From positions 1 to 59,071 of the IMG/VR virus record IMGVR_UViG_3300048589_000569: 59,071 nucleotides of DNA; one strand, written 5' to 3'. Positions within the stretch are counted from its first letter, which is position 1, and the number at the start of each line of letters is the position of its first letter. This DNA is from a virus (Duplodnaviria; Caudoviricetes). The notes under the pieces were generated by a model, which had not been told where the DNA came from, did not search any database, and saw nothing but the letters and a program-made list of their open reading frames with translations. Both the position numbers and the translations under genes were made by a program. Below are positions 931-58,133 of the stretch, piece by piece.

Positions 931-947
931 ACCTCGCGGTCGCTTAA
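931..947 (+). repeat. dispersed motif ACCTCGCGGTCGCTTAA, intergenic copy (representative of ~19-21 copies)
   Basis: Core CCTCGCGGTCGC on + at copies starting 931, 5464, 8899, 14787, 23149, 23674, 27708, 30815, 32749, 42924, 53030; on - at 3819, 18135, 21301, 30297, 39789, 42455, 49012, 57305. Near-matches at 13968 and 17041. Confidence 0.95.
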
Positions 948-992
948 ACTCCCCTCTCCTTCTCCGGCCTTCGCTCTCGCATAGGAAACCTC

Positions 993-2360
993 ATGGCAAC
1001 AAACTTCCCCGAACTCGCTGAACGCTTCATCGAGGAGCACTACACCCTCGGCGAAACCTCCACCCTCCGTCGCTACGAGGGCAACTGGTGGGTCTGGCGT
1101 CATCACCACTACACCCCCGTCCTCAACGATGTCATTCGCGCCGAACTCTACGACTTCTTCCGCGACAGTCTCGTCCTCTCCAAGTCCGCCATCGACAACC
1201 TCATGGACTCTCTCAAGGCCGCGGTCCAGGTCCGTTCCCCCTCGATGCCTTGCTGGGTCGCCTCCGGTTCCCACTACCCCCGGCCCGAAGATGTTCTCGC
1301 CTTCACCAACGGTTGGCTCTCCATCCCCGAACTCCTCGAACGCAAGCCCCGCCTCAACCCTCCCACCCCCCTGTGGTTCTCCTCCGAACACTGTGCCTTC
1401 AACTACCGCCCCAACGACGAGTGCCCCACGTGGCTCCGCTGTCTCAACGACTGGTTCCCTGACGACCCCGACTCCCAGAACCTCCTCCAGGAATGGTTCG
1501 GCTACTGCCTCACCTCTGACACCGCCCACCACAAGTTCCTCTTCCTCATCGGTCCACCCCGAACAGGCAAGTCCACCATCCTCAACGTCCTCCAAACCCT
1601 CCTCGGCGGAACTGAGCAGGTCGCCTCCACCACCCTCCAATCCCTCGGCGGCGAGTTCGGCCTCCAACCCCTCATCGGCAAGAACCTCGTCCAGATGGGT
1701 GAGTTCCGCATCTCCAACACCAAGGACCACTCCGAAGGCCTCCAACGCATGATCTCGATCATCGGCGAGGACCCCATGTACGTCCGCCGCAAGCGCATTG
1801 ACGACCTTGCCTCCTACAAGTTCACCACCCGCTTCATGGTCGCCGGAAACATGGTCCCCCGTCTCTCCGACTCCTCGGGCGCCCTCCTCGAACGAATGCT
1901 GCTCCTCGACCTCGAGTACGCCCGCCCCATCATCGACTGTCCGGACACCGGCCTCTATCCCAAACTCATCTCGGAGGCCTCCGGCATCCTCAACTGGGCC
2001 ATCGAGGGCCTCATCCGCCTTCGCACCAACGGACGCTTCTCCCAGCCCCAGACTTCCACAGATCGCCGCAACGAGTTCGAACTCGAACTCAACCCCCTCT
2101 CCGAGTTCGTCCGCGAATGTCTCACCGTCTCCCCCAATGTCGGCGACATTCCCGCCGCCGACCTCTACTACGTGTACACCAAGTGGCACGAGAAGTACAG
2201 AGCCGGTCGCTCTCCCTTCACCTCCCTCATCTTCGGTCGTTACCTCACAGGCGCCGCGTCCGGACGCATCCGTCTCCGTCGCGCTACCCGCGTCAATCCC
2301 GAGCCTCACTTCGTCGGCTGTCGCTTAACTCCGAGTTGGGCTGGACTCGTCAAGCCCTGA
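993..2360 (+). CDS. P4/D5-family SF3 helicase (primase-helicase C-terminal type)
   Basis: D5_N-like region (AFTNGWL), Walker A GPPRTGKST, motif C-like AGN, ILNWAIEGL, and a C-terminal winged-helix-like segment (DLYYVYTKW...FGRYL). Confidence 0.85.
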   Translation: MATNFPELAERFIEEHYTLGETSTLRRYEGNWWVWRHHHYTPVLNDVIRAELYDFFRDSLVLSKSAIDNLMDSLKAAVQVRSPSMPCWVASGSHYPRPEDVLAFTNGWLSIPELLERKPRLNPPTPLWFSSEHCAFNYRPNDECPTWLRCLNDWFPDDPDSQNLLQEWFGYCLTSDTAHHKFLFLIGPPRTGKSTILNVLQTLLGGTEQVASTTLQSLGGEFGLQPLIGKNLVQMGEFRISNTKDHSEGLQRMISIIGEDPMYVRRKRIDDLASYKFTTRFMVAGNMVPRLSDSSGALLERMLLLDLEYARPIIDCPDTGLYPKLISEASGILNWAIEGLIRLRTNGRFSQPQTSTDRRNEFELELNPLSEFVRECLTVSPNVGDIPAADLYYVYTKWHEKYRAGRSPFTSLIFGRYLTGAASGRIRLRRATRVNPEPHFVGCRLTPSWAGLVKP

Positions 2361-2375
2361 CCAGTACAATCAAAC

Positions 2376-2873
2376 ATGGGGCCCCCCGAAGAAAACTTCG
2401 TCGCCAATGACGACCGCAACCTCATCGAGACCTTCGACGCCACGAAGGAACACTCCATCGTTCACGTTCCCTCCGAACAGAACTCCCTCACCCTCTCGAA
2501 GGAGTTCTTCTCGTGGGAAGCCATCGAACGGGCCCTCCGCGAACTGGGCTTCTCCGCCTTCGAAGAGGTCGAGATGGTCGTCAGGGGGATGCAGGACACC
2601 TACCGCAAAGGCGACTATCACAACTGCCTCCGCTTCATGAACCAACTCAACTCCCTGTTCTCCCGACGTATGCAGGCCAACGCTCAGAAGGTAGTCACCC
2701 GTGCAACACGAGTATCCGACGACGGAAACGATTCAGTTGTTATGGAAAGGCATTCCACTGACGCATTCATGGAGCGATTCCTTGATGCCCCGTCTCCAAA
2801 GCCTTCAACTGAAGCATACCGGAGTCATCTGCGGGCACCAGTGGAAAGAGATCTTCCGAGCCCGAGCGAATGA
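2376..2873 (+). CDS. hypothetical protein, possible terminase small subunit
   Basis: 165-aa helical ORF upstream of TerL; function inferred from position only. Confidence 0.45.
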   Translation: MGPPEENFVANDDRNLIETFDATKEHSIVHVPSEQNSLTLSKEFFSWEAIERALRELGFSAFEEVEMVVRGMQDTYRKGDYHNCLRFMNQLNSLFSRRMQANAQKVVTRATRVSDDGNDSVVMERHSTDAFMERFLDAPSPKPSTEAYRSHLRAPVERDLPSPSE

Positions 2874-3417
2874 CTTCCTCTCCACCCCTCCCCACAAACG
2901 CCCCCTTCTTCCCGTCATCAAAGAACCGTCACGTCTGAAAGGAGTCCCTATCCCCATGCGTTCGAAGATCAAGAATCCCTGCAACCTCGACCCCCTCTTC
3001 CTCCAAGAGTTCGACGAACACTTCCGTTCCAAGTACGATCCCGTCTACAAGTCCGATTACCTCGTCGAGATCCTCCGCTCTATGGGATTCGACTCTCGCA
3101 CCATCTGGTCTCGCATCCTCAACGGCGACCGAGTCCAGTCCACCCTCACCATCCGCTCCGACATCATCCTCAACAACGACGACGACTACCAGGACTGGGT
3201 TTACGCCCTCCTCTCGTGGATGTTCGCCGAGAACGGTTTCATCCCCTCTCCCGAAGTCGCCGCCCTCCGCGTCTTCTCCACCGCCTGCGTCCGTTGGCTC
3301 AACTTCAAACTCGCCCTCGACGAACCCCTCCCCACCGCCCCCCTTTCCCCCGTTCCCTACAAGCCCGAAGCACCCCCCACCAAGAGAGGTCGTCCGCGTA
3401 AGAACCCCATTCAATGA
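2701..3417 (+). CDS. hypothetical protein with C-terminal AT-hook-like motif (true start uncertain, probably 2870-2956)
   Basis: Ends ...TKRGRPRKNPIQ; its stop overlaps the TerL ATG (ATGA). Confidence 0.6.
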   Translation: MQHEYPTTETIQLLWKGIPLTHSWSDSLMPRLQSLQLKHTGVICGHQWKEIFRARANDFLSTPPHKRPLLPVIKEPSRLKGVPIPMRSKIKNPCNLDPLFLQEFDEHFRSKYDPVYKSDYLVEILRSMGFDSRTIWSRILNGDRVQSTLTIRSDIILNNDDDYQDWVYALLSWMFAENGFIPSPEVAALRVFSTACVRWLNFKLALDEPLPTAPLSPVPYKPEAPPTKRGRPRKNPIQ

Positions 3418-5357
3418 AAGTCGTTCGGATCGAGAAAGAAGGCAACCCCAACTTTCCGCTGCCCGCGAACTACGCTGACATTCTCAAGCGTAACTCGCAG
3501 GCCGCGGCCTTCTTTCGTTTCAATGCCCTCTGTCAGTGGAACCTCGAAGACCTCTCCCCCGAGAAGAAGGCCGAGTACTTCAACGACTGCCTCCGCTTCC
3601 TCGACACCTTCTACCTCCAGAATCCCCAAGGCCGCTTCTATCCCCCCGGCGAATTCCGTCGCTCCCCCGAGTTCCACAACGACATCCTCCAATCCCTCAT
3701 CCTCTACAAGTACACCGCCGTAGCCGCCCCTCGTGGTCACGCCAAGTCGTACTTGATGCTCAAGATCTGCCTCCTCATCCTCCTCACCTGCGTCGACTTC
3801 GAAATCACCTACATGACGGCGACCGCGAGGTTGGTGAAGCGATTCTTCACCAAACTCATCCGCACCCTCGCCCACAACGAACTCCTCAAGTCCGACTACG
3901 AACGCTTCTACTCCAAACCCATCAAGCCCACCCGAGGCGACGGCGCTTGGTCTTCTCAGGGCCTCCTGCAACTCTCCAACGGCGCCGTGATCACCGGCTC
4001 CTCCCCCGGCTCAACCAACCGAGGCGATCGTCCCAACCTCATGATCGTCGACGACATCGAAGACGACTACGAGGACACCACCGATTCGCAGAAGGCCCGC
4101 GACGACGTGTTGGAGACCATCTTCCGCGTCATCATCCCCATGGTCTCCATGGGCGATCGCAAACTCCTCTGGATCGGCACCCTCATCTCCCGTCGTCACG
4201 TCCTCACGGGCGTCATGTCCGACGACAACAACGACTCCGAATTCCGCGACCGCCGCTTCGACCATTGGTCCCGCCTCTCCTTCAAGGCCCGCTACGAACT
4301 CCCCTCCGGTGGATTCGAGATTCTGTGGCCTGACCTCTACACCGAAAAGCGCCTGAAAGAGATCGAGCAGGAAGTCGGTTCCGACATCTTCCGTGCCGAA
4401 TACCTCAACGAGCCCGGTCACGAAGGCGACAAGTCCTTCTTCCTCGACGAGAAGAAGCACGCCTATCAACTGGATGACCTGGACGCTTTCACCGCCGCCA
4501 ACCCCCTCCTCTCCGAATCCAACATCACCTACTTCGACCGCAAGTTCGAGAAGCGAACCCTCCCCCTCAAGGACTTCCTCAACAACAGCCTACGCTTCAT
4601 CACTGTGGACTGGGCCCTCTCCGTCGGCCCCTCCTCCGACTTCTCGGTCGCCACCGTGATGTGCCTCACCCCCCACAACGAACTCTTCGTCCTCGACCTC
4701 TTCGTCGGTCGCGTCACCCTTTCCGACCTCACCACCCAGATCATGCGTCTGGTCGACAAGTGGCGCATCTCCATCGTCGGCGTCGAAGCCCCCTCGGTCC
4801 ACGGCGAACTGATGCATCTCGTCCGCACCGCTATGGACAACTACGCGGAGGCCAACGGCAGGAAGCCCAAACTCATCAAGATCCCCCAGCACAAGGGCAT
4901 GGCCAAGGAACGCTACATCGAAGGTCTGATGTGGCGGTTCGGCGACCGCAACGACGAGAAGAGTCCAGGCTACATCAAACTCCCCTTCTTCAACCGCTCC
5001 AAGTCCCCATGGCGCCAACTGTTCCAGCAGATCCAGGACTTCTCCCCCCTCGTCAAGGGCGGAGGTCTGGAGCACGACGACATCCTCGAAACCATCTCGA
5101 TGTCCCACCGTGTCATCCCCGGCAAGCCCATCCTTCGCCCCTCCGACATCACCGGCGAGGAGACCGAGTGGGACCGTATGCTGGCGGGCGAGTTCACCGA
5201 CCCCACCACCGGAGACTCCTACCTCTCGGGCGCCGACTTGCTGCGAATTAACCCCGAAGCACTCCAGAAGTTGCTTGATATCGCAAGAGAGAAGCACTAC
5301 GATCATAAGGAGACCAACTATGGCAAAGACCCCCTCAACCCGCGTTCGCGGTTCTAA
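3414..5357 (+). CDS. terL: terminase large subunit
   Basis: Walker A APRGHAKS, RGDRPNLMIVDDIED (Walker B), WIGT coupling motif, RNase H-like ITVDWA...SDFS, VGVE and HDDILE. Confidence 0.92.
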   Translation: MKVVRIEKEGNPNFPLPANYADILKRNSQAAAFFRFNALCQWNLEDLSPEKKAEYFNDCLRFLDTFYLQNPQGRFYPPGEFRRSPEFHNDILQSLILYKYTAVAAPRGHAKSYLMLKICLLILLTCVDFEITYMTATARLVKRFFTKLIRTLAHNELLKSDYERFYSKPIKPTRGDGAWSSQGLLQLSNGAVITGSSPGSTNRGDRPNLMIVDDIEDDYEDTTDSQKARDDVLETIFRVIIPMVSMGDRKLLWIGTLISRRHVLTGVMSDDNNDSEFRDRRFDHWSRLSFKARYELPSGGFEILWPDLYTEKRLKEIEQEVGSDIFRAEYLNEPGHEGDKSFFLDEKKHAYQLDDLDAFTAANPLLSESNITYFDRKFEKRTLPLKDFLNNSLRFITVDWALSVGPSSDFSVATVMCLTPHNELFVLDLFVGRVTLSDLTTQIMRLVDKWRISIVGVEAPSVHGELMHLVRTAMDNYAEANGRKPKLIKIPQHKGMAKERYIEGLMWRFGDRNDEKSPGYIKLPFFNRSKSPWRQLFQQIQDFSPLVKGGGLEHDDILETISMSHRVIPGKPILRPSDITGEETEWDRMLAGEFTDPTTGDSYLSGADLLRINPEALQKLLDIAREKHYDHKETNYGKDPLNPRSRF

Positions 5358-5670
5358 CATCACCCTCTCGTTCGATCAACTGCTCGAACTCATCCGCACC
5401 ATCCAATCCCCAACCCCCAAACCCACCCCCCGCCCCATCCACCCCCTAACAGCGGAACCCCTAACCTCGCGGTCGCTTAATTCTCATGAGGGTGTGGAAA
5501 TGGATCTGGATCGGAGGTTGGGTCCTTCGAATGAACCGCCTCCCGCCGTGAGGCACCTCGGGAGACGAGCGGCGACGGACGAGGAGAGGGAGAGGATGAA
5601 GGAACTGAAGAAGGTGATGTCCGGCGAAGTCAACGACCTCATGGAGGACAGTGCTGCTGGTGGGGAGTGA
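5320..5670 (+). CDS. hypothetical protein (116 aa)
   Basis: In-frame ATG at 5320 within ORF 5110-5670; fills the gap between TerL and portal. Confidence 0.6.
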   Translation: MAKTPSTRVRGSNITLSFDQLLELIRTIQSPTPKPTPRPIHPLTAEPLTSRSLNSHEGVEMDLDRRLGPSNEPPPAVRHLGRRAATDEERERMKELKKVMSGEVNDLMEDSAAGGE

Positions 5671-8591: not shown

Positions 8592-10058
8592 ATGGCAGAC
8601 AGTTTTTACGATACGATTGAAGGTCGTATCGAACTCCTCTTCAACCGACAGGTGATGGAGTTCGAGTGTGAGGCTTCGCCTCTCTTCAACACCATGATCT
8701 CGAGTGAGGGCACGTTCAAGGGCGCTGGGTCCGGTGGATTCAGCCGCAACTGGTACGTCCGCAAACTCCTCGAGATGGGTGACAACGGTTACTTCGAGAT
8801 GGACGGCGCCAGCGGCACCACCATCAACGGCGATAACATCGGCAACAACGAACTCTTCTACTTCCTCGACCAGACCAACACCGAAGCGCCCGACCCCAAC
8901 CTCGCGGTCGCTGGTCTCCTCACTGTGGAGATGCAGATCCCGCTCCGGGCCGGTCGAGGCGTCCTCACTCGTTCGCTTGACGAGAAGCGTCAGCAGATGA
9001 ACGATGGGTATGTTGGTGAGGAGTATGCGAAGAAGATGATGAGAGCGGCCCGAGGCCTCACTCGTCAGCGTGCAGGTATGCTCTTTGCGGACGACGAGTA
9101 TGGTCTGATCGCGACCATCTCCTCCGTCACCAACGGCACCGGCACCCAGCCCACCTCCACCTCGGACTACACCGAGTACGAGGTCACCATCGCCGACTCC
9201 AAGATTGACGCGTTCCACACGGCGATGCCCATCCAGATCACCACGTCTGCGGGCGTGAGCAAGGGCACGTACTACGTGAAGAACGTGGACCGCGGCGACT
9301 TCACCCTTCGAGTTTACAAGAAGGGCGACCTCACCGCGACTTCGGGTGACGACCTGGAAGTGGGCGACAAGATCTACGCGAACAACGGCGCGCCGGTTTC
9401 GACGCAGTCGTACAGCGTGGACGGCATCAATGCCCACATCAAGGACAGCGGCACCATCTACAACGTGGATATCTCGCTGTTCCCGCAACTCCGCTCGTAC
9501 ATCAAGACTGGTCAGACGGGCCCTCTCACTGAGACCCGCCTGAATAAGTGGCTCGATCACTTCAAGTTCCAGCACGAGTGTTGGGGCAACTACATCGACA
9601 CGCTCATCCTCAACTCTGCGACCCGACGGGCGTGGGTTGAGCAGGAGCAGTCGTATTACACGAAGGAGCGAGCCCGCCAGCCGATGACCCTCGCAGGTCA
9701 GGGTGACGACGGCGTCACCACGTACGTCCACGACGGTGACACGTACAAGATCTACGTGGACAACGCCGTCAAGGACGGTCGACTGCACGGCCTGCGTCTG
9801 GGTGGTCAGAACTACACCAGATACACGCCTCCGTCGACGCCGGGCACTGACACGGCGGGTATGCCTGGGCACACGCCTGTTGAGTTCTGGGCGAGATTCG
9901 TCACGGACAACAACAGCATCTTCGTGCCCAAGTGGGGCTCCAACAACCGCCTCACCCGCGTCTCGTACGCGCCGTTTGATTACCGCATGAACGTCGTGCC
10001 GGATCAGATGGCCGCTCTCCGAATTGACGGTCTGTCTGTCAGCCGTGACTCTCTGTAA
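8592..10058 (+). CDS. major capsid protein
   Basis: 488 aa after the scaffold, strongly biased codon usage, followed by a strong terminator. Confidence 0.8.
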   Translation: MADSFYDTIEGRIELLFNRQVMEFECEASPLFNTMISSEGTFKGAGSGGFSRNWYVRKLLEMGDNGYFEMDGASGTTINGDNIGNNELFYFLDQTNTEAPDPNLAVAGLLTVEMQIPLRAGRGVLTRSLDEKRQQMNDGYVGEEYAKKMMRAARGLTRQRAGMLFADDEYGLIATISSVTNGTGTQPTSTSDYTEYEVTIADSKIDAFHTAMPIQITTSAGVSKGTYYVKNVDRGDFTLRVYKKGDLTATSGDDLEVGDKIYANNGAPVSTQSYSVDGINAHIKDSGTIYNVDISLFPQLRSYIKTGQTGPLTETRLNKWLDHFKFQHECWGNYIDTLILNSATRRAWVEQEQSYYTKERARQPMTLAGQGDDGVTTYVHDGDTYKIYVDNAVKDGRLHGLRLGGQNYTRYTPPSTPGTDTAGMPGHTPVEFWARFVTDNNSIFVPKWGSNNRLTRVSYAPFDYRMNVVPDQMAALRIDGLSVSRDSL

Positions 10059-14454: not shown

Positions 14455-14822
14455 ACCTCACCGTATTCATCCTGTCCATCCTCGCAGCGGTTGGATTGGC
14501 GACCGCCATCAGCGAGATGCCCTTCGGCCCCCTCCGCTGGTTCCGCACCAAAGTATCCACCCTCATCGAGAAGGATTGGTGGCGTCAGTTCTGGCACTGC
14601 CCCACCTGCCTCTCTTTCTGGTTCGCCCTCTTCTTCGTCCTCTTCGGTCAGGTGTGGCCCCACCTCCTCCTCTACTCTCTGTTTGGAGGCCTCACCGCCG
14701 TCTTCGTCGTTCGCTACCTCAAAGCCCTCACTCACCCCCGCCCCACCCCAACCATGCCACAACTCCCCATGAACATTGGACCAGTAACCTCGCGGTCGCT
14801 TGAGGATCAGTCGAATGGCTGA
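14451..14822 (+). CDS. DUF1360-like small membrane protein
   Basis: Hydrophobic helices with HCPTCLSFW (CPxCxSxW) motif. Confidence 0.6.
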   Translation: MNLTVFILSILAAVGLATAISEMPFGPLRWFRTKVSTLIEKDWWRQFWHCPTCLSFWFALFFVLFGQVWPHLLLYSLFGGLTAVFVVRYLKALTHPRPTPTMPQLPMNIGPVTSRSLEDQSNG

Positions 14823-15483: not shown

Positions 15484-17855
15484 GAGGAAGAGTCGTCGAT
15501 CAAACTTGGAACTACCGCACCAGCGAAATCAGCCAATCGAAGCGGACTCGTCGCGTCGGTATGGAGAGGGGGTTCTGCCCCGAACTCGTCGGCATTGATG
15601 GTAGGGTTCAAGGGGGCGTTCGTGTGTTCGGAGGTTTCAAGCGAGAGGGCCAGTTGGGTGCGATGACTCCCCTCTCGTCGGATAGCACGGGCTACACCAT
15701 CGACACTCTGCACAACGTCTTCCCCATCAGTTTTCAGGTCGGCTCCTCCGACATCTACCACGGCTACGTCGTTCGCTACACAAACGGCTCCACCGACTAC
15801 ATTGTGGTGGAGTACTTTGATGGGAGCGAGTGGCACATCCAGCAGATCACCAGTGGCTCTTCGGTCGCCGATCAGCCGATGGATGTGGCTGTTGTTGGGC
15901 GACTCGTGTACATCTTCCGAGAGGGGTTTCAGCCCGTCCTCTTCTACGTCGACCCCGACGCCACCGATGAGAGCGTGGTTGTTGCTGACACTGGGCCGGG
16001 CAAGGCCCCCAACACCGATCACGGTTCGGGCATCGTCGGCGAACTCACCGTCACTGTCGTCGACACCCTCCCCTCCGGCGAAGAGGGAGTCCTTCTACCT
16101 CCCGGTTCGTATGCGTTCACTTACCAACTGAGGGATTCGATCACCGGCAGACTCAGTGCGTTGGCCGAACCTGTCCAGATCACCTCGTCTGACTTTCCTG
16201 TTGTGGGATCGGCGCCTGATGAGGCTGCAACCAGCGGCTACATCAAGTTGGAGATCACGAACGCGACGAACTTGGCCAACCGATTCGATCAGATCCGCGT
16301 CTACCGCTCCCTCGAGGTGACTACGGCGGGTGGCTCTTTTGCAAGCAGCATCTACAACCTCGACAAGGTGGACGACTTCATTCTTGACGGAGGCACCTAC
16401 ACCCACTTCTTCGAGTTGGAGGACTACCCCCTCAGCATCCAACCTCTGTACGACAATTCGGCTCAGTTTCTCGAGGACATCCCCTTCGGTAGGGCAGCCG
16501 CCCACTACCAGGGGATGCTCGTTGTGTCCTCGCAGGATCAGGTGGGAGACGACGTGACCGCCATTGGCGAGATTCGTTATAGTTCGCCCACCACCATCAG
16601 CCCCGAACTGTTCCCCCCAGACAACCGCTTCCCTATGGAGGACAGTTCCGATGTGCCCCTCGCGTTTGCGAGGGTCGGTGGCTTCCTCTATGGGTTCAGT
16701 AAGAACCGAATCTACCTTGTCATCAAGAGCGGCATTCAGGTGATCGCGGAGGGGATGCATGAGGGATTTGGGGTGGTTGGGCAGTTCGCCGTCGGCACCG
16801 CCGAGAACTCCGCCTACTACCTCAGCAAGAACGGTTTCCTCCGCGTCGATCGTCAGGGTAACGTCGAGCCCCTCAACGCCATCGACCGCCTCGTCTACGA
16901 GGACTGGGCCGACTCTCTCGAAGAATGCTACGTCACCTTCGACCCCTCAATGAACGCTATCTTCATCCTCAATCCCATCGAGGAGAAGATGGTGTGCTTC
17001 TGGTTCTCCACCTCCTCTGTGTCGGAGATCTGGGACACGAACTTCGCGGTCGCTTCTTATGGCGTTGTTCCTTCGTCAGGGAACGAACTGAAGAGAGCCC
17101 AGTTCTTCAGCAACAAGGGCATCGTCTACCGCTTCGATGACAAGAGGGAGAAGGATCGCGTCGATCTGCTTGACCACTCTGGCCCGGCGATCACCACTGT
17201 CGACTTCACGGCGACCGCCACCTCCTCCGTTCGTGTCGTTGATGAAGGGTACGACACTGACGACATTGTGGGGTGCAAGATCGTGTTCATGAATGGGGAT
17301 TCGGAGTGGCAGATGAGGGAGATTACTGGGATCGTCGAGTCGGCGACCTCCGCTGGACCCACCACCTTCACTGTGGACTCTCCCGTCACCATTGATGAGG
17401 GGGACACGGTTGTTATCAGCCCGGTGAGATTCAGATGGGTGGGTTGGGAGATTGGCCTCGAATCGGAGTTCGGAGGAGCCGATTCGTATAGGGGGGCCGG
17501 TCAGGATTACTTCCGCAGACGCACAATTAAATCTCTAGGGTGCCACTTTATTAGCGTTGACGGGGACGCCTCCGATAACGCGAATGTGGCGGTGTTCAAG
17601 GCGTCCGTTCTGAGCGGCCTGTCGGAAGATCCTGTGGTGGAGAGGGTGGTGAGGTCGTATCAGGACAGGGAGACGGCTGTGGTGGCCGTGGCGGACAATC
17701 CCGGCAGATACCACGCGCCGCTTGGGGAGTTTGGAGTGGCAGGGTCGCTCCTGTTCCCGGTGGTGGAGGTGATGGCGGCAGACTTGGATTTCGTGTTGAT
17801 TTCGGTCACCGTCAATGGTAATATTGAGAGGACGTATAATCCAGAGGGGGCTTAA
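15480..17855 (+). CDS. tail nozzle / tail tubular B-like (beta-propeller) protein
   Basis: 791 aa, beta-rich, propeller-like repeats (EIRYSS, LYGFSKNRIY, AYYLSKNGFLR); position before internal virion genes. Confidence 0.6.
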   Translation: MRGRVVDQTWNYRTSEISQSKRTRRVGMERGFCPELVGIDGRVQGGVRVFGGFKREGQLGAMTPLSSDSTGYTIDTLHNVFPISFQVGSSDIYHGYVVRYTNGSTDYIVVEYFDGSEWHIQQITSGSSVADQPMDVAVVGRLVYIFREGFQPVLFYVDPDATDESVVVADTGPGKAPNTDHGSGIVGELTVTVVDTLPSGEEGVLLPPGSYAFTYQLRDSITGRLSALAEPVQITSSDFPVVGSAPDEAATSGYIKLEITNATNLANRFDQIRVYRSLEVTTAGGSFASSIYNLDKVDDFILDGGTYTHFFELEDYPLSIQPLYDNSAQFLEDIPFGRAAAHYQGMLVVSSQDQVGDDVTAIGEIRYSSPTTISPELFPPDNRFPMEDSSDVPLAFARVGGFLYGFSKNRIYLVIKSGIQVIAEGMHEGFGVVGQFAVGTAENSAYYLSKNGFLRVDRQGNVEPLNAIDRLVYEDWADSLEECYVTFDPSMNAIFILNPIEEKMVCFWFSTSSVSEIWDTNFAVASYGVVPSSGNELKRAQFFSNKGIVYRFDDKREKDRVDLLDHSGPAITTVDFTATATSSVRVVDEGYDTDDIVGCKIVFMNGDSEWQMREITGIVESATSAGPTTFTVDSPVTIDEGDTVVISPVRFRWVGWEIGLESEFGGADSYRGAGQDYFRRRTIKSLGCHFISVDGDASDNANVAVFKASVLSGLSEDPVVERVVRSYQDRETAVVAVADNPGRYHAPLGEFGVAGSLLFPVVEVMAADLDFVLISVTVNGNIERTYNPEGA

Positions 17856-17856: not shown

Positions 17857-19095
17857 ATGGCATTCGGACCTGACAATCGAGGGTTCTCTGGGGGCGGTCA
17901 ATCCTTCACCAGAGGCCTAGCCGCCCTCAGCGGGGCTGCTCGTGGCAACATGGGCGGCGGCGCCATCAATCGGAGGGCCAAAGGCTCTCAGATGCAGGTG
18001 GTTCCCCCCTCCAACCTTCCGTCGAACTCTAGAGATGGTGGGAGGTCGCTTTACAACGCGAACGGGCTGCCTCGCGTCAACAACCCCAACATGTCGTTTG
18101 GGGAGTACGTGGACAATCGCACTCTCGCTCGTCCAGCGACCGCGAGGCCCGGTGCATTCACTCCGGACGCCACGTTCGGTCAGATGCAGAGGGACTACAT
18201 GAGTAGGGGTGGGGATCAGATCTCCACTTATGGGGGCGAGGGTGGTGAGATGTCCACGATGGACATGCTCAGGGAGGCTGTCGATAGCGACTATGAGCGG
18301 ATGCAGGGGGCTGCTGATCGACAGTGGCAACGGTTGGATCTGGTGAATCAGGAGTTCGCCGGTCGCATTGATCCCGCTGCCGACAGAGCCCGCAATGTTG
18401 GGTTCGAGCAGGCTGACGAACTGACGAGACTGGCCGAGGAGGACAGGGCGTTCTTCGAGCAGAAGAGTGACGAGATTCTCGGTGAGTACAAGAATCTCAG
18501 CGCTCAGCAGACGATGGCTCAGATCACCGGCATGAGACGGAATGTTGAGCAGAGTCTCTTCGAGATTGAGAGTGATCCCAACCTCACTCCCGCTCAGAAG
18601 ATGGCCCAGAAGGAACGCATCCGGTTGGGAGTCAACGAGCAGACGAGTGCCGTGGCCGCTCAACTGGGGGCCCAGTACAACGAAGCGAGGGCGACTCTCG
18701 GTCTCAACCTCAACCAGCAGCGACTCGGAAGCCAGCAGATGAGGCAGGGGATGTATGCTCAGGCTGCGTCGATGCGGATGGCGGCTGAGGCGGCTGCGAC
18801 CGAACTGGAGTTGGGGGGCCTCGTCACCCTCAGCAATCTCATCCGGTCGAACCCGGAGACTGTTGTTAGTCAGGTGACAGGACTCGCCCAACTGATGGCC
18901 ATCGAGTCCAGCGGTGGCGGCGGAGGTGTCTTTAGTCCGTCCGGCTTTATGGGCGGGGGTGGGAGTGAGTCGGCCCCCTTCGGACCTCAGTGGAACTGGG
19001 GATCGCAGGGCGACGAGGCTAGGGACTACGTGAGGGCCAATAGGGGGGGCGAGGACGAAGAGTTTGAGCCCGCCTCCGAGGGGATGCAGCGATGA
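17857..19095 (+). CDS. putative internal virion (ejection) protein
   Basis: Gly/Gln/Met/Ala-rich helical ORF in the ejection-protein position. Confidence 0.5.
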   Translation: MAFGPDNRGFSGGGQSFTRGLAALSGAARGNMGGGAINRRAKGSQMQVVPPSNLPSNSRDGGRSLYNANGLPRVNNPNMSFGEYVDNRTLARPATARPGAFTPDATFGQMQRDYMSRGGDQISTYGGEGGEMSTMDMLREAVDSDYERMQGAADRQWQRLDLVNQEFAGRIDPAADRARNVGFEQADELTRLAEEDRAFFEQKSDEILGEYKNLSAQQTMAQITGMRRNVEQSLFEIESDPNLTPAQKMAQKERIRLGVNEQTSAVAAQLGAQYNEARATLGLNLNQQRLGSQQMRQGMYAQAASMRMAAEAAATELELGGLVTLSNLIRSNPETVVSQVTGLAQLMAIESSGGGGGVFSPSGFMGGGGSESAPFGPQWNWGSQGDEARDYVRANRGGEDEEFEPASEGMQR

Positions 19096-32630: not shown

Positions 32631-32793
32631 TCAGATCTCCATCTAAAGAACTAGTGTGAAACTCCCCCGCCACTTTTCAGCAGCGGGGGGAGTGTCCGAC
32701 TCAACTCACCTCTGGAATGGCCCCCGTCGCTTACGGGCGAATCGGGGGACCTCGCGGTCGCTTGAGAGATCATACCTCTTCGCCAAGGGGAGT

Positions 32794-39865: not shown

Positions 39866-40286
39866 ACCTTCCTTTCCGCATATAGCGACGAGATGTATTG
39901 GGATTCGTCGCTCAGAAGTATAGAGGCCAGTTCCAGGTTGGTCAGCCTCTTGTTCACCGGGGGCTCAAAAGCGGCTCTCTTGAAGGAGACGAAGAAGGTG
40001 GTGAGGGTGGGCGTCGGGTGAGGAAGTTCTTGATCTCTCCCACCGTGCGTAGGGTCGAGACCGCAATCTCCTCGAACGACATTCCCAGGCGACGCATCGT
40101 CACGATCTGTAGGCATTCTTCTGTTCCTTCGGGCAGGGGGGTGCGTGGGAGGAGGCCGGAACTCTTCATCACCTTGATGATGTCGAGGGGGTCGGCGTCG
40201 AGGGCGGCGGCTATCTCGATGACGGACAACTTTTGCGACCAAAGGTGGCTGATCTTGTCCGCAAACGTCAGGTGGGGGGTATTCAT
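39862..40286 (-). CDS. HTH DNA-binding protein, apparently frameshifted near 40010
   Basis: LSVIEIAAAL and GMSFEEIAVSTLRTVGEIK HTH-like segments. The alternative frame continues and ends coupled to the ERCC4 start. Confidence 0.55.
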
Positions 40287-46266: not shown

Positions 46267-47868
46267 TCATGCTCCCTCCTTCACCGCTTCGGCGAGCGCG
46301 AGGCAGATGGCGCGGGGGAGGGTGTCGGCGGATGCCCCGCCGTAATACTCCAGCCTGGACGTGTACGCGTCTTCGCTAAAGATGGAACCGATCGGTCGAT
46401 CAATCCCAGACAGCAGCGTGACCAAGAACTTGGGCCCGTTGCAAGGAGTCCCGATTGAATAGCACGCCTTGCCCCGACCACCATTCTGCTCGATCCACGC
46501 CTCCAGCGCCGCGAACGCCGCGTTGAGGTCGGTGAGTACTTTCGGCGCTTGGTCCGGATCAATGATCGCAGACCATGTAAGGGCCTCGCCCTTCTTTGGC
46601 GTGCCGAACATGCGAAGGTTGGGGTAGTAGGTGTAGTTGAGCACCTTCGTCAGGATCAGCACGCGGAGGTCAGTGTCGGTCATCGCAATGTCTCCTGCAC
46701 GAGCCGGGCGTGGAGGTTTATCAGGTCGGATTTGGAACCAACGTCGAGACAACCCTTGAGTTTGATGCAGTCGAGATTGCATCGAGCCAAATTCGCGCAC
46801 GCATCAATCGTCGCCAGCCGGTTGAGTTCGTCGGCGATGTCGTCGTCGAGAGCGGTATCCCAGACGGATCGGTAGTACGGCTCGCCCTCGACGGGCTCGA
46901 TGTATTTCAGCATCGGATGCACGCACGGCCACTTCACGGGGTCCAAAGGATTCGGCCCGTTTCCTTTCAATCCGGCGTTGCGGTTGAAAGGTTCGTTTCC
47001 ATCAGGCATTGCGTTGCTCCTTGTGGCGGGCGGCGATGAGGGCGGGCATGGTCTGTATGGCAATGCGGGTGTAGTCGAGCGCATCGCATGGTCCGAGGTC
47101 GTCTGCGTTGGCGACGTACTTCTCCAACCTCTCCATCTGCTCTGCGGTGAGTTCAGGCGTCGGCATGGGTGTCCTTTCCGTCGATGGCGCGCAGACTGCG
47201 TACATACTCCTCAGAGGTCATGCCGCCGGGGGTGCGAAGGTTCTTGGCGTGCAACTCGTCAATCGAGATTGGCTTGGGCGCGATCAACTCCAACGCCTCG
47301 ACGCGACATTGCAGTTCATCACGTTCCGCCTTCAACTCCGCGATGTGGGAGAGGAGGTCGGGGAGGGCGTTGACGGTCTCGCACATGAGAATGCGAGAGA
47401 CATCATCAACGTCTCCGCCCAACCAAACTGGCTCGCGACCATCGTAGTTCGAGATGGGTTCAATGCCCCCTCGCTCATCCTCGTGGGCCTGATAGTCGAT
47501 ATACGGCCCGCAGCACCCGATATCCGTTCTCCACGGGAGCGGCGGGGCTTTCGCCAGCAACTCCCGCAACTGCTCCTCGGTCATGCCGCCGTACGTCGTG
47601 GGGGTCATTGGGTGGGCTCCTCTGCGCCGTTTACAGCATTGAGCACTTCGTTGGCGGCGATCTCAAAGTCAGGCCACGCCTCAGAAACCGCCCACACGCT
47701 GGTGCCCTTACAAAACTTCAGCCACGCAGTCGCGAAGTTCTTGGCTGATTCGATAATCCGCTCATTGCGACTGGCTGGCGGGAAAACGCTGATCGCTCGC
47801 GGATCATCTTGCAACCGCTCGGTCTTGATCTTTCGCATCCGTTCGTAGTACTCGTGCTCATCGCTCAT
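46267..47868 (-). other. block of five small coupled hypothetical genes of foreign composition (46267-46683, 46680-47009, 47002-47166, 47153-47608, 47605-47868)
   Basis: Overlapping stops and starts, GGAG RBSs; the strong G/C strand skew is absent here. Confidence 0.6.
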
Positions 47869-48790: not shown

Positions 48791-49366
48791 TTATCGGTGA
48801 TCTCCGTCGCCAGTGAGGGTGCCTCGTTGCTGGCGTGAGTTGAGTTTCTGGAGGTTGCGATTGCCGATCTCATCGAAGTGCTGAGAACCGATGGTTTCAC
48901 AGAAGATTTGGTAGGCTTCGAGAGTGGTGAGGTAGATCTTGCGAAGTCGATCGGGTGTGATGCCTTCGTCGCCTGGGCGAAGAGGCTTCTTGATGATGTT
49001 GCAGAGACGTGAAGCGACCGCGAGGCAGTCCTTCATGTCGGAGCGGAAGTTGAGGGAGCGGTGGGTGGTGAGGCCTTCGAAGAGGGAAGTGGGGTCGTCG
49101 GTAGTCTTGAAGTAGAGGAGGAGAAGGGAGAAGTACCAACGGCAGTCGCCCGCCTCGTCGTATGAGTCGGCGACGGTGAGTGGGGCGTCGCCAGCGAGGA
49201 GTTCGGCCAACTCACCGACAAGGCCGAGGATGAAGTAGTCGAGACGGTTGAGGGGGAGGAGGGCGGTGAGGACGGCTTGCTGTTGATAGTCGGAAGGGTA
49301 GTCGGAGCAGATGGGGGTGATGGGGGGTTGGTCAGGAAAGGAGATGTGAGGGGTCTGTGTCGTCAT
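48791..49366 (-). CDS. MazG-like nucleotide pyrophosphohydrolase
   Basis: LGLVGELAEL, DEAGDCRWY, NLQKLNSRQQRGTLTGDGDHR. Confidence 0.8.
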   Translation of the reverse strand: MTTQTPHISFPDQPPITPICSDYPSDYQQQAVLTALLPLNRLDYFILGLVGELAELLAGDAPLTVADSYDEAGDCRWYFSLLLLYFKTTDDPTSLFEGLTTHRSLNFRSDMKDCLAVASRLCNIIKKPLRPGDEGITPDRLRKIYLTTLEAYQIFCETIGSQHFDEIGNRNLQKLNSRQQRGTLTGDGDHR

Positions 49367-52310: not shown

Positions 52311-55300
52311 CTAACTCCTATCTGTGAGGTTTGCGGCCTTCAATGACAGACGGGCCAGGGTGCGTGAATGGGTGAGTTCGGTGAGATGAACAAGGACCAA
52401 AGTGAGAACGACGAGAGGCCAGAACACTAGCGACCTCGAACGAGGTCTTCGTCGGGCTCCTCGTTCAGACGTTCGGTCAGGTACGCTTCGATCCGTTCGA
52501 GTAGGCAAGCGTCGTCTACCTCCTTTCCTTCGAGGGTTACCGAGTCGACAACGGCGACATAGTTACCCGTGTAGTAGGAGTAGGCGTCGAAGCCATCGTA
52601 CCAAGGCAACGACTCCTTCTCCACCGAGAACTCCACCTCATACTCCACGTCGTCAAGGTCAATCTTCATCGAGATAATCACACTCCACTTTGTTGTCGCA
52701 GTAGTGAAGGAGTCCTTTCAAACGAACGACGTTGAGTTCTGCGGGGATTATTACATCTTCTCCTGTCTTGAGGACAGTGGCATGGACGTGAGATCCAGTG
52801 CTATCAACGAACGACCTTCGAATGAGAGGATTTTCTGTTTCGGGGTAACGAAAGATTTCTCCTTTGACCATACGACCGACTGGAATGGTTGTGCCCGACG
52901 TGGCTACGCATTTGACTTTCATGAGGGCTCCTTGGGAATGGAAATGCCCCCGCCATCCGGGGAGGACAGCAGGGGCAGTCTCGGCTACGACCTGCCACTT
53001 CGGAGCAGCGAACACGAAAGGCACGAATGACCTCGCGGTCGCTTAACGGTCAGGTGTGCTGAGTGGTGGGATCAGCGACGACCAGCGAAGAGGTCGCGGA
53101 GTTGGTTACCCAGATTCGACAGGAACGAGTCGACCGGGTCCCCCTGCTTGCAGCAGTCATCGGAAGAACAGAGGTCGACGGTGCGACCGCGATCAGAGTC
53201 GATGGAGGGGGTGGGGGTTGGGAGGTAGTTGGGGAGGTTGAGGGCCTGCTTGATAGCCTCACCGAGAGTCTCCAGGTCGTCGAACCACGCAAACGCTTCG
53301 AGGTCGATGATGGGGTTGCCATCCTCGTCGTGGAGGTTGTCGTCGTCGATGGTGGAGCCGGTGACGGGAGTGGAGAAGGAGTAGGGGGAGGAGGAGGTGG
53401 GGCGAGAGAGGGCGAGGAAGGGGCGTCGCTTCTGGAAGTTGAAGGCGGAGTACTTGACGACGTTGGAGTCGGCGGGGATGGGCATCGAGATGATGCGCAC
53501 CTTGGCTTCGGACGAACGGAGGGTCATGAGGGCGGAGATGGCCGCGTCGATCTGAGAAACAGTGAGAGACATACTGCAATCCTTTCCTAGGAAGGAAACA
53601 ATGAGACACTCCCTACAGCGGGAGTTAGTCGGATGAGGGGGGTTGCTTGAGGGCTTCGGTGTAGATAGAGCCATCGAAGTCGAGGTCGGACAGTTGGTCG
53701 TTGAATGCCTGTTCGATCTCCAACAACGTAGGGTCGTCGTCGGCGAGGGGGCCGTTGGGACCGGTGATGTTGGTGATGTAGATGGTGTCGGGTTCGGAGT
53801 TGGCGATCGAAGATTGGACAGTGAAGGGGCCGCCGGGAAGGTTGACAGTGTGGTAGAAAGACAGACCGACGAACTTGAATTCCATGTTAGTGTTCCGAGT
53901 CGAGTGAGGTGAGGAGGGCGGCGACGATCTGTTGTTGCTCGGCCTTTTCGATGAGCAAGGCCAATCGCTTCACCTCCGATGAGGGGTAGGAGATGGAGTG
54001 GCCCTTGCCCGTCCGAACGGTAACGAGGTTTCTCGTCGTGTCAATGATGACGGTGGATTTGGAGGCGGTGCGGGGGCGAGAATGGAAACGATGCTCTTTG
54101 AGTTGGGTGGTGGTCTTAGCCAAAGAGGTAACTCCACGTGTCGATGACCATACGGAACAGGGCGACACTCGCGATCGCGGCGACAGCCCCCATGAAAAAG
54201 CCGACGGCCAGCATCACGAACGCCGTGCCCGCCAACGATTCGAACACCTCGTCGTCATCCTTGAGCAGGATGAGCGGCTGTTCTCCTTCTTCCATATCAG
54301 TCTCCTTCTCTGCGTTTGATGTATTCTTCGTGCTTTGCTATCTGCTCGTCGAGCAACGCTCTTCGTTCGCGTTCGAGTTGGTCAGGGTCGATGTCATAAA
54401 ACATCGAGACGAGTTGAATGTCTGACTTATGGGTTCGGAAGTATTCACCGAAGGAGTCAGTCTCGCAGATCGAATACCCTTTCGATCCAAGCCATTCGAT
54501 GAACTCTAGGACACGAGAGCCCCCATCACAAAGGGCATCTGCCCATTTGTCGATCATGTCTCTTTGCATCACGCACCTCCCTTCACGTCGGCCTGCGATG
54601 CGTCTGCGCGGCTCGCGGCCTGCGCCGTCTCGCTGGAGATGCGGGAGAGGAACGCTTCAAGCCGATTGAGGTCGCCTATCGCTGGCCGGTGGGCGACCTT
54701 GAACATCGCAAGGCACCACTTCAGTTCGTCGTACATCTCCCCCGCGTGCTTCGTGAGCGGGGTTTCGGGGATCAGGCGGTGGACGAGGGTGTCGGGATTG
54801 AGCACCGCGCCGGCGCCGAGGCGAACGCCTGTCGCATTCCTCGATTCGACGAGTTGCGGCATACCCGCGCCCACGCGACTGCGAAGGCACACGGTCTCGC
54901 CTACGGCAAGGTCGCCGAGCGGGTGGAGGATGGGTTGGGTGGGGTCAGGCATTGTGTTCCTTTCGTGAGTGAGGTTAGTCCCATTCGTCTTCGAAGTCAT
55001 CGTCGTCGACGCGACCGCGGAGGAGATTGTGGTGACAGGAGGAGAGGACGGAGGGGGCTTCGAGATCGACAGAGGTGCGGCCAGTGGCTTTCTGGATAGA
55101 GTCGGCGATGTCGAGTTTGCGTGTGATTGCTTCGAAGAGGTATGGAGCAAGGCGCTCGACGGTCGCTCGGTACATAGTTCGATAGGATTCGACTGGCATA
55201 GTCGAAGGCCTATCCCCGTAGAGGTACTTGGCTCGACGACTCTTCTCGAGGGGGGCATTGAGGTCGCGATTGATGAGTTCGGTGGCTGCGATGAGTGGAC

Positions 55301-56515: not shown

Positions 56516-56758
56516 TCAGTTGCGGATGGTGAGAATGGAGTCAGGGAATGACTCAACAAGAATGGATGATCTGAACTGAAACAGAGTTGCGGTCTCCAAG
56601 TTGATGCAGAGGGAGTAGTTGGAGTCGACGTTGATTTTGAAGTGGTTGGGATTGACCCGCATGTAGAATAGGTTGGGGGCATCGGAGAAGCGGAAGGGAA
56701 CTCCGATGGCGAGACCACAGAGAGGCTTTGAGCCGGTGATGTTGTGTTCGATCTCCAT
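56516..56758 (-). CDS. hypothetical protein (80 aa)
   Basis: AGGAG RBS plus ATG at 56758. Confidence 0.55.
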   Translation of the reverse strand: MEIEHNITGSKPLCGLAIGVPFRFSDAPNLFYMRVNPNHFKINVDSNYSLCINLETATLFQFRSSILVESFPDSILTIRN

Positions 56759-56851
56759 GAGGTGACTCCTGAGGGTGGGGGGTTGGGAAGGAAGAAAACC
56801 CCGCAACCCCGGGGGAGGGAGAGGGGGCCGGAGAAAGGGCATGAGTCGTGG

Positions 56852-57196
56852 TTATGTGTGTTTGTCTGAGAACACTGCGGTGACTCGTGCTTCGCCTGTA
56901 ACTTGCGGAAACATGCTTCGTTCGAAGATTGCAAACCTCAATGGTTTGTTGGTAGGAAGATATCCGTTTTTGGCGCAAGTCGCATACACTAGGAGGTCTA
57001 CGAGTTGGTTCACTTGTGAAGGTTCAAGTTTAGATAGAGTTTGAATCAAGTGAAGTTGAAGGTAGAGAACCATAGACCCTTTCAAGTCAAAGGCGAAGTC
57101 GATGTCGTACATCTTTGTGGTGTCATCTAAGGTGTGTGGGTAGACGACGAGATGATGAACGAGTCTGGGGTCTGGATCAAATGGTGCTTTGGACAT
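56852..57196 (-). CDS. hypothetical protein (114 aa), lower GC
   Basis: AAGGAG RBS plus ATG at 57196. Confidence 0.6.
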   Translation of the reverse strand: MSKAPFDPDPRLVHHLVVYPHTLDDTTKMYDIDFAFDLKGSMVLYLQLHLIQTLSKLEPSQVNQLVDLLVYATCAKNGYLPTNKPLRFAIFERSMFPQVTGEARVTAVFSDKHT

Positions 57197-57225
57197 ACTT
57201 GTCTCTCCTTCAAGGTGCGGATGTG

Positions 57226-57259
57226 AAAAAACCCCCATGCCCGTTAGAGCGGTGGGGGT
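57226..57259 (-). terminator. rho-independent terminator
   Basis: ACCCCCA...TGGGGGT stem followed by a T run on the - strand. Confidence 0.6.
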
Positions 57260-58133
57260 CGGAGAGGGATGAGGCATGATTTGGATAAGGGGGGGGGTGA
57301 AACCTAAGCGACCGCGAGGTCAGGGGGTTGAGGGGGTTAGGGGAGGGAGGGGCGGCAGTTGGGGGAGGGGACGTGTTTGGTGCGGCGGCGGTAGCGACGT
57401 GGGGCGCGGGAGCCGTCGAAGAGGGGGTGGTGCTTGTCGCCGGAGATGGAGTAGCGGTTGGCGGTGGCGGAGGGGGAGACGCCGATGGGGGGGTCGGTGA
57501 GGTGGGAGCGGCGACAGGCGACGCCGCGGACGCCGAGGGATTCCCGGGCGGGTTGAAGGTGGGTGGGGCCACGGTCGGGGCGAAGGACGCCGATTGAGGT
57601 CCGGTCGAGCATGGATGAAACTCCTGGGAAAGGGTGTGACGAGTTGAAAGCCGGAACGACCCCCGCTGGGGAGTCGTCCGGGGTTTGTACAGCCACGGGT
57701 CGCGTTGGCTGGAACGCCCGAATCCTTCAAGGGTTGTGTTGTGTGGGTGCCCGACCGTTCGACGCTGATTCAAGCGTCCGGCGCATCCCCCGATTGGGGG
57801 ACACTTTCCCGTTGCGCAGTATCCGGAGCGGTACAGAGGGAGGGGGGGTAGCCGGATAGACCGGCGGCGCCGGGCGGATCAGTCGGCCCTGTCCACTAGG
57901 GGGAGGGGATGATCGGCCATGACGCAGCGTATGCGCGTTGGGTGGGATTCGCACTCCACCGCCGATTGGCGGTTGTCTAGGGCGGGGGTCGCTTCCGTGG
58001 ATCCCCGATCCCGGCTTTCTCGCGGCCCTAAGGCGGAGAGAGAGCGGAGAACGAGGGGAGCGACCCGTACCGAGTGCGCTCGCCCGATCCGTTGTCTAGG
58101 TCGGTGGGCGAGAGGGGGAAGGTAGGAAGCACG

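Follow-up and report, generated by a model that had tools for sequence, protein, structure and literature searches.

The genome of a tailed virus (Duplodnaviria; Caudoviricetes), held as IMG/VR record IMGVR_UViG_3300048589_000569, carries 19 exact copies of an asymmetric 12-nt word, CCTCGCGGTCGC, and each of five related phage genomes carries an iterated word of its own. The iterated, lineage-specific word is a trait of this phage clade, and this is the main new result of the analysis. The stretch of DNA studied, referred to below as the window, is the whole record of 59,071 bp, which CheckV rates as 100% complete. A preliminary description, made from the letters of the window, had drawn attention to the word. 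To that description we add the intergenic position of seven of the 19 copies and, as the most informative fact, the presence of a separate motif in each related phage.

The exact copies are divided between the plus strand (11) and the minus strand (8) and occur about once per 3.1 kb (Table). Dinucleotide-preserving shuffles (n = 100) contained a mean of 0.02 copies and at most one, and none of the 100 reached 19; the preliminary description, which had counted at least 19 core copies where fewer than one was expected by chance, was right in both respects. Its plus-strand coordinates fit the word extended by one A (931 and so on), and its minus-strand coordinates are displaced by 0 to 3 nt. Of the two near-matches that it listed, the one at 17041 is a real plus-strand copy with one mismatch (ACTTCGCGGTCGCT), whereas the one at 13968 is partial, sharing CGCGGTCGCTTA and having three mismatches in the 12-mer. 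The 14-mer ACCTCGCGGTCGCT is found in 15 exact copies and five more with one mismatch, and position-wise information gives a footprint of about 16 nt, gaCCTCGCGGTCGCTt; we write the selected unit as RACCTCGCGGTCGCTT. Just 5' of the intergenic copies there tends to stand TAA or TGA, and just 3' of them TTAA or TTAG. Besides its 19 exact copies, the 12-mer has 3 copies with a single mismatch and 17 with two, where chance would give about 13 with up to two mismatches. Recognition of the motif looks all-or-none, as judged from the 19 exact copies, the few with one mismatch and the 15 that hold the full 14-mer.

Selection on the motif as DNA rather than as peptide, which the preliminary description had proposed, is supported by the five reading frames in which it is read, its presence on both strands, its excess between genes and a synonymous-codon control. 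Twelve of the 19 copies lie within curated open reading frames (ORFs), 8 in sense and 4 in antisense, and the five frames reported earlier are all there: xLAVA (six copies), ATAR (three), and TSRSL, PRGR and SDREV (one each). When synonymous codons were shuffled within genes (300 runs), a control that the preliminary description had suggested, the mean number of coding copies was 0.49 and the maximum 3, compared with the 12 observed. Intergenic DNA makes up only 3,480 bases, or 5.9% of the genome, and the motif is about 9 times denser there than in coding sequence (p = 7e-5). The inner 8-mer CGCGGTCG occurs 18 times in coding sequence, including the 12 motif copies, against 7.4 in shuffles; it is not enriched beyond the motif copies, which indicates that the whole word is the selected unit. 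Relative to transcription, 12 copies are in sense and 7 in antisense (p = 0.36), and three of the seven intergenic copies are antisense to their own gene arm. No copy falls in the intein regions of NrdJ and PolA or in the high-GC stretch 33957-37690, as the preliminary description had observed for inteins and foreign islands. Two of its gene names, MazG and DUF5664, were not reproduced, and ORF 48791-49435 matches no Pfam family at E<=0.01.

Relatives of the window were sought with a profile built from three TerL sequences, which detected 80 viral-contig loci that are 27-34% identical; word counts in these loci showed that many carry a repeated word of their own. Five whole relatives were fetched (G001 to G005, the window being G000), four of them rated 100% complete and one 84%, with TerL proteins 29-34% identical to that of the window. 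All five carry their own asymmetric word of 10-16 nt in 19-29 copies on both strands. The words are ACCTGGAGGGGGT(g) in G001, with 28 unique copies and one more duplicated by assembly overlap; (t)ATCGGATGGGACT(c) in G002, with 23 copies; (g)GCTGTGGGAGGGGGG in G003, with 27 copies; (at)GGTGGTGGGG(aa), also given as ATGGTGGTGGGGAA, in G004, with 19 copies; and (ga)CCAGTGGGGGT in G005, with 26 copies. Across the six genomes the copies stand in several frames and in both orientations to genes, and 22-32% of them are intergenic by rough gene calls. Their spacing is more even than random, with a coefficient of variation of the gaps of 0.58-0.89 against about 0.94 (Fisher p = 6e-4), and among close pairs the (-,+) arrangement outnumbers the (+,-) arrangement by 16 to 4 (p = 0.012, a post hoc comparison). 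In their G-rich orientation the words favour the TerL-sense strand by 92:50 in the six genomes together (p = 5e-4, about 65%), and this strand is the globally G-rich one in all six; in the window the ratio is 11:8.

Most of the TerL loci of at least 12 kb contain an enriched 9-mer with a run of G, for example AGTGGGGGG, GTGGGGGGA, CAGTGGGGG or CTGGTGGGG, and a few are without one. The word of the window is the least G-rich of the six, and with those of G001 and G005 it has in common a 5' (g)ACC and a 3' T, which is only a hint that a common recognition frame may lie behind the three. No relative with the same word as the window was found by scanning viral contigs or metagenome contigs with the TerL peptide. 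The 14-mer occurs in at least 117 stretches of viral contigs, and among the 80 listed none has more than one copy. A 19-mer scan of metagenome contigs gave a single match, at 1600-1623 of a 2.6-kb bacterial-looking contig (L232) with hydrolase-like and regulator-like ORFs; the match is to the motif in its intergenic form, over 21-24 nt, is accompanied by no other similarity to the window and is probably due to chance. A full-text literature search for six motif strings did not find them in a relevant context among the 20 papers listed of 172.

How the copies arise was examined by aligning six protein families of the window with their relatives: TerL, the protein encoded at 8592-10058, the 1161-aa protein, PolA, the ERCC4 protein and a 426-aa protein. 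The motif codons of the window fall in homologous columns without any motif-sized insertion, the exceptions being the copy at 8900, which adds a single residue, and the copy at 42925, which lies beside a two-residue gap in the relatives. In places they displace residues that are otherwise conserved, as with ATAR in TerL where five relatives have ST--. Because the columns are homologous and free of such insertions, we take the copies to have been made by substitution. How single sites persist was compared in the CAGTGGGGG group, in 13 loci (a reference and 12 others) of 70-81% nucleotide identity. A core of 9-10 nt is kept at five orthologous sites, three flanking bases vary, and one site occurs in just 3 of the 13 loci. 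At position 10, T has become G at all four aligned sites of one locus (L148) and at two of three in another (L141). The pattern is that of purifying selection on single sites combined with a concerted shift in specificity. The kept cores and the concerted change at position 10 call for a trans-acting reader, and concerted change is what co-evolution with a trans factor would lead one to expect.

We lean modestly towards the view that the motif is the site of a reader encoded by the phage, whatever that reader does to the DNA. The preliminary description had suggested a binding or loading site for a DNA-transaction protein of phage or host, a suggestion that is compatible with all of the findings but is unproven and unspecific, with no binder identified. 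As for the action of the reader, we infer by analogy, tentatively and at well under even confidence, a strand-specific nicking of the strand that bears the word. On this model the phage would encode a sequence-specific DNA-acting protein that co-evolves with its cognate cis sites, the window footprint being RACCTCGCGGTCGCTT and each lineage of the clade having its own asymmetric word. The enzyme would recognise each copy in an all-or-none manner and nick the strand carrying it, producing localized single-strand interruptions like those of T5-like, phiKMV-like and tf/Bruynoghevirus phages, except that both strands would be affected. Such nicks might serve replication, recombination or packaging throughout the genome.

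Several observations weigh against this model. No nickase or other reader was recognised among the window proteins scanned, the nucleases that were found (ERCC4, PD-(D/E)XK and intein LAGLIDADG) are not known as site-specific nickases, and neither of two helix-turn-helix (HTH) candidates is kept in the relatives. Described nick motifs, in the available text of the papers, lie on one strand only, whereas the window has a ratio of 11:8 and the six genomes 92:50; the Bruynoghevirus nick motif is described without an intergenic excess (PMC11780129, available text), whereas the motif of the window is 9-fold denser between genes. The metagenome-assembled genome (MAG) that we use below to separate phage from host counts, G007, is perhaps not that of the host, and two of its contigs, C18 and C72, are only putatively phage, as judged from motif density and G+C. 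Finally, the words of several relatives resemble proteobacterial Chi, with GCTGGTGG inside GGCTGGTGGGG and GGTGGTGG within the motif of G004, and this likeness favours a host factor as the reader.

Among the window proteins, three small ones were considered as trans factors. The first gene of the plus arm, ORF 374-910, has a weak LysR-type HTH, and no homologue of it was found in the relatives; a single-sequence AlphaFold model was useless (predicted local distance difference test, pLDDT, 35). For the second HTH protein (39954-40286), which the preliminary description had named, no homologue could be detected in G001-G005, all of which bear motifs. The third, whose gene (2376-2873) immediately precedes TerL, is a conserved protein present in 77 sources searched, but it is nearly unchanged between sub-lineages that differ at motif position 10 and so does not track the motif, and it was rejected as the reader. 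Its model (pLDDT 64) is a long helical hairpin with a small beta element, for which no PDB match with E<=0.001 was found; it occupies the usual place of a small terminase, an identity that is unproven. A comparison of gene identities between T-type and G-type sub-lineages showed no outlier gene. All five relatives keep the SF3 helicase, and no evidence ties it to the motif.

A wider form of the phage-encoded reader would make the word a re-targetable code of genome identity, in which a two-module reader tells phage from host DNA by a lineage-specific word of 10-16 nt; we consider it speculative and rather improbable. A shared RACC-type half-site would be joined to a variable half, one copy would stand every 2-3 kb or so on both strands, and the word might keep a helicase-nuclease in check, as the phage's own analogue of Chi, or provide nick-primed starts for primase-independent replication and recombination. 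The reader and its approximately 25 sites would then switch specificity together as lineages split.

The alternative that survives best is that the host supplies the reader and the phage genome has come to hold many copies of a host signal, either a Chi-like hotspot of an end-processing helicase-nuclease or another oriented word found throughout the host chromosome, which protects or recombines replicating phage DNA so that each lineage mirrors its own host. We regard this as unlikely. In its favour, copy number and density match those of the Chi-rich phages LLS and MD8 (PMC12315714, available text). G-rich words predominate in the clade, with GCTGGTGG or GGTGGTGG as part of some of them, the bias towards the TerL-sense and G-rich strand is a polarity of the Chi kind, relatives that are quite divergent have very similar words (AGTGGGGGG), and the concerted change could reflect a switch of host. 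Against this, the window has a unit of 12-16 nt whose inner 8-mer is not enriched alone, whereas known Chi sequences have 5-8 nt. The orientation bias is weak in comparison with the 20:3 and 32:0 of the Chi-rich phages, and those phages are described as lacking Rec modules while the clade has AAA_24, PD-(D/E)XK and ERCC4 genes (PMC12315714, available text).

Counts in bacterial genomes also bear on a host signal. A scan of species-representative genomes with the TerL profile found four MAG contigs. One MAG, G007 (3.6 Mb), has 36 copies of a relative's word, GTGGGGGGA. Three of its contigs (22.8, 15.2 and 10.6 kb) account for 29 of them, and the 7 copies outside these contigs are at background, the reversed control giving 12. 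These contigs (C7, C18 and C72; loci L239-L242; 48.6 kb in total, GC 0.53-0.54) hold 35 copies of GTGGGGGG. The TerL relative is encoded on C7, and C18 and C72 were called phage from motif density and G+C only; the three may be pieces of one clade phage genome binned with a bacterial MAG. If G007 is the host, the word does not serve there as a signal across the chromosome, although binning does not prove a host. The 12-mer of the window does not reach phage-like density in any of 301 genomes from the phylum of a second MAG (G008): the largest count is 163 in 12.3 Mb (about one per 75 kb), and the densest genome has 82 copies in 4.7 Mb (about one per 57 kb, as against one per 3.1 kb in the phage). 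The 14-mer has at most 4 copies in any of 121 genomes from the phylum of G007, and E. coli K-12 has none of the window word. The 422 genomes sampled represent the phyla of these two MAGs, and the likeliest host phyla fall outside them. The absence of a second 14-mer copy from the 80 listed of at least 117 viral stretches is a further point against a host signal.

Sites of a monomeric phage-encoded regulator that blocks or tunes transcription across the genome, in the manner of stoperators, are a doubtful alternative; such a regulator could set a temporal switch or a carrier or lysogenic state. A size of 14-16 bp, asymmetry, 19-29 copies and a lineage-specific consensus would all fit (PMC6550527, available text), a monomeric two-domain repressor on an asymmetric site offers a precedent (PMC9283540, available text), seven copies stand in short intergenic gaps adjoining gene starts or stops, and there are the two weak HTH candidates. 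Three of the motifs have (g)ACC and T around a variable middle, as two recognition modules predict. The orientation of the copies speaks against it, as the preliminary description had cautioned: it is mixed in all five relatives, and in the window the 12 sense and 7 antisense copies do not depart from chance. No integrase, partition or repressor family (Pfam, PHROG) was found among about 60 window proteins scanned, several small ORFs being left out; neither HTH candidate has a homologue in the relatives that bear motifs, and the scarcity of one-mismatch sites is sharper than is usual for operators.

That the copies are entry sites for the D5-like SF3 helicase or for a primase, giving dispersed starts of replication or recombination, we consider quite improbable. 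The helicase is present in all five relatives as D5_N and SF3 core only, without a primase domain in Pfam, the copies stand about 2-3 kb apart at intervals more regular than chance would give, and the post hoc excess of (-,+) close pairs (16 to 4, p = 0.012) fits bidirectional starts. Nothing ties the helicase to the word, however, and the pair statistic was noticed after the data had been viewed; known primase recognition sites have about 3 nt and origin iterons are clustered.

Equally improbable, in our judgement, is a word with no site function, spread or kept uniform by mutation or gene conversion or arising as a by-product of composition or peptide. Templated conversion could produce the concerted change. 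In five genomes from the phylum of G008 (G270, G208, G031, G173 and G042) the 12-mer is at least 10-15 times as frequent as its reversed control (for example 93 against 6 in G270, and 34 against 0), at a density still at least 20 times below that of the phage; such an excess in some Planctomycetota genomes, without phage-like density, means that the word can be favoured to some degree by a bias in composition or peptide. On the other side stand the absence of insertions at the sites, the synonymous-shuffle expectation of 0.49, the five frames and intergenic copies, the even spacing in six genomes and the cores kept at 70-81% background identity.

The remaining candidates can be dismissed briefly: a peptide-level repeat by the five frames; a mobile short repeat (MITE-like or insertion-borne) by the lack of motif-sized insertions in the six aligned families; an assembly or adapter artefact by the ORFs that stay open and the six words in six genomes; an RNA family by an RNA search of the window that found two tRNAs only; a ribosome-binding site as the source of the G-run by GGGGGAGG, which in the window is never found in the 40 nt that precede a same-strand start; a HIP1-like palindrome by the non-palindromic word; and a set of promoters or terminators by the 12 genic copies and the three of seven intergenic ones that are antisense to their arm.

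The setting of the motif is a genome of two convergent gene arms, plus from 374 to 27708 and minus from 28041 to 58956 (Table). The final 126 bases (58946-59071) exactly repeat bases 4-129, and the contig, of record class 'linear', closes on itself, either as a circular or permuted assembly or with a short terminal repeat. Between the divergent starts of the arms the plus strand is strongly C-rich at 60-290 and is followed by (TA)n/(CA)n near 300-325; at the right end (about 58680-58945) there is a mirrored G-rich stretch with a tandem duplicate of GTAATGAGGGTGGGGGG. The region 60-330 and about 58680-58945 may be an origin or promoter region, and it contains no motif copies. GC skew is extreme in 1-6000 and 42000-58000, at -0.455 over 1-2000 and +0.25 to +0.37 on the plus strand over minus-strand genes; the early genes and the replication genes have a very C-rich coding strand, and ORF 374-910 has a G+C content at third codon positions of 0.93. 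No primase domain was recognised by Pfam in the D5-like protein or in the other window proteins scanned.

The longest motif-free gap, 32762-39788, contains the high-GC stretch 33957-37690 on the minus strand (GC 0.66-0.67, compared with 0.59 for the genome), which encodes a peptidase M64-like protein and a 964-aa protein; the nearest Atlas clusters of the latter are LamG/sialidase-like phage and bacterial proteins with scores of 0.80 or less, which are leads only. The thymidylate-synthase-like gene overlaps or abuts a nucleotide-diphospho-sugar transferase-like gene (43908-45267, minus strand), and this gene pair could mean that the phage DNA contains a modified pyrimidine. Megablast of 12 kb of the window against phage records gave no match, the window TerL is at best 21-25% identical to phage records (Alteromonas and Bacillus phages), and the protein in portal position has no match among 50,697 phage records.

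Table. Copies of the motif, genes and other features of the window; sense and antisense refer to the gene in which a copy lies or to the gene arm.
Feature	Position	Strand	Remarks
Exact copy	932..943	+	Intergenic; 50 nt upstream of the D5-like helicase gene; flanks tagaCC...GCttaa
Exact copy	3819..3830	-	Within TerL, antisense, ATAR
Exact copy	5465..5476	+	Intergenic, TerL to gene in portal position; extended form GAACCCCTAACCTCGCGGTCGCTTAA, same as at 30816
Exact copy	8900..8911	+	Structural gene 8592-10058, sense, NLAVA
Exact copy	14788..14799	+	3' end of ORF 14451-14822, just ahead of the start of 14800-15483; TSRSL
Exact copy	18136..18147	-	ORF 17815-19095, antisense, ATAR
Exact copy	21303..21314	-	ORF 21087-22073, antisense, ATAR
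Exact copy	23150..23161	+	1161-aa gene 22920-26405, DLAVA
Exact copy	23675..23686	+	1161-aa gene 22920-26405, DLAVA
Exact copy	27709..27720	+	Intergenic, abuts the stop codon of the last plus-arm gene (27463-27708); junction of the convergent arms
Exact copy	30297..30308	-	NrdJ, sense, PRGR; (-,+) pair with 30816
Exact copy	30816..30827	+	Intergenic, upstream of NrdJ, antisense to arm
Exact copy	32750..32761	+	Intergenic, PD-(D/E)XK gene to AAA_24 gene, antisense to arm
Exact copy	39789..39800	-	ERCC4-domain nuclease gene 39311-39865, NLAVA
Exact copy	42456..42467	-	UDG-PolA, sense, LLAVA; (-,+) pair with 42925
Exact copy	42925..42936	+	UDG-PolA, antisense, SDREV
Exact copy	49014..49025	-	ORF 48791-49435, sense, CLAVA
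Exact copy	53031..53042	+	Intergenic, 53072-53674 to 52659-53024, antisense to arm
Exact copy	57308..57319	-	Intergenic, 31 nt upstream of ORF 56852-57277, sense
One-mismatch copy CTTCGCGGTCGC (ACTTCGCGGTCGCT)	17042..17053	+	Cognate A and T flanks
One-mismatch copy CCTCGCGATCGC	25698..25709	-	May be chance
One-mismatch copy CCTCGCGCTCGC	46292..46303	-	May be chance
Candidate trans factor only	374..910	+	First plus-arm gene; weak LysR-type HTH at aa 43-66, E=0.053
D5-like SF3 helicase	993-2360	+	Pfam: D5_N and SF3 core only
Small conserved protein	2376-2873	+	Just upstream of TerL
TerL	3414-5357	+	
Gene in portal position	5674-7692	+	
Conserved structural gene	8592-10058	+	
SU10-type adaptor	10666-11568	+	
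Conserved 1161-aa virion-arm gene	22920-26405	+	
tRNA-Arg(tct)	27949-28021	-	
NrdJ	28041-30698	-	With LAGLIDADG intein
AAA_24 ATPase and PD-(D/E)XK nuclease	31716-33942	-	
ERCC4-domain nuclease	39311-39865	-	
Candidate trans factor only	39954..40286	-	110 aa, two weak HTH matches
UDG-PolA fusion	40283-43939	-	With LAGLIDADG intein
Thymidylate-synthase-like gene	43908-45008	-	phrog_85
tRNA-Glu(ctc)	56394-56468	-	

If the reader is indeed encoded by the phage, the clade offers a natural series of protein-DNA specificities, with at least six very different words of 10-16 nt in one genome architecture and a concerted change of reader and sites, which would give insight into the evolution of recognition and might yield new nickases or binders with sequence specificity. 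Should it also nick, the motif-associated nicks that have gone unexplained for fifty years would be extended to both strands and to a large uncultured environmental clade. Were the words host signals instead, they would provide Chi-like sequences specific to individual hosts among uncultured bacteria and a means of pairing phage with host from sequence alone. Whichever holds, the motif is an inexpensive marker by which fragments from metagenomes can be assigned to one phage genome, as with the three contigs in MAG G007.

Three described systems resemble the motif of the window, which departs from each of them in one defining feature; the comparison with them is drawn from the available text of the papers cited. 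Closest to the favoured nickase-type reading are the nick motifs of the Pseudomonas phages tf and Rembedalsseter (LUZ24-like, Bruynoghevirus) and those of phiKMV-like and T5-like phages. In phage tf, 14 copies of TACTRTGMC form a nick-associated motif (PMC3517423), and Rembedalsseter has 13 copies of WACTRTGAC, with 61 related phages enriched for the motif (PMC11780129). The consensus differs between relatives (TACTGTGAC as against TACTATGAC), and the authors propose co-evolution of nickase and site (PMC3517423, PMC11780129). Like the words of the window clade these are exact and asymmetric, with almost no near-misses, they occur inside and outside genes, and they keep their positions and show variants of the consensus among relatives, the last two features being seen, in our case, in other members of the clade. 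Their hosts, in the sense of the genomes that carry them, are lytic podoviruses with two convergent arms, an arrangement also found in the window. The described motifs have 9 nt (19 nt with 5 free positions in phiKMV) and lie on one strand only (PMC3517423, PMC11780129), in 13-14 copies, whereas the words of the clade have 10-16 nt (12-16 in the window) and 19-29 copies and are known from sequence alone.

The stoperators of Cluster A mycobacteriophages, of the L5 gp71 type, are likewise asymmetric, with 13-14 bp, up to about 30 copies per genome in both arms and a lineage-specific consensus, and many of them, like copies in the window, stand in short intergenic gaps. Up to 30 sites are reported, with motifs that track the divergence of the repressor (PMC6550527), and a monomeric two-domain repressor reads an asymmetric site (PMC9283540). 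Stoperators predominantly follow transcription, however, and belong to temperate phages with a known repressor (PMC6550527), whereas the orientation of the window copies is independent of transcription, and there are no lysogeny genes among the window proteins scanned and no conserved repressor. Chi-rich phages, finally, share with the clade their 20-32 G-rich asymmetric copies per approximately 45-58 kb, embedded in genes by substitution, and a polarity that follows the terminase strand. The lambdoid phage LLS has 23 Chi, one per 1.86 kb, in a ratio of 20:3, and MD8 of P. aeruginosa has 32 copies of GCTGGCGC in a ratio of 32:0 (PMC12315714). There the word is an 8-mer of the host, 87-100% in one orientation and clustered toward one end, in phages without Rec genes (PMC12315714), whereas the clade has words of 10-16 nt, about 65% of them in one orientation, evenly spaced and in genomes that carry a Rec module.

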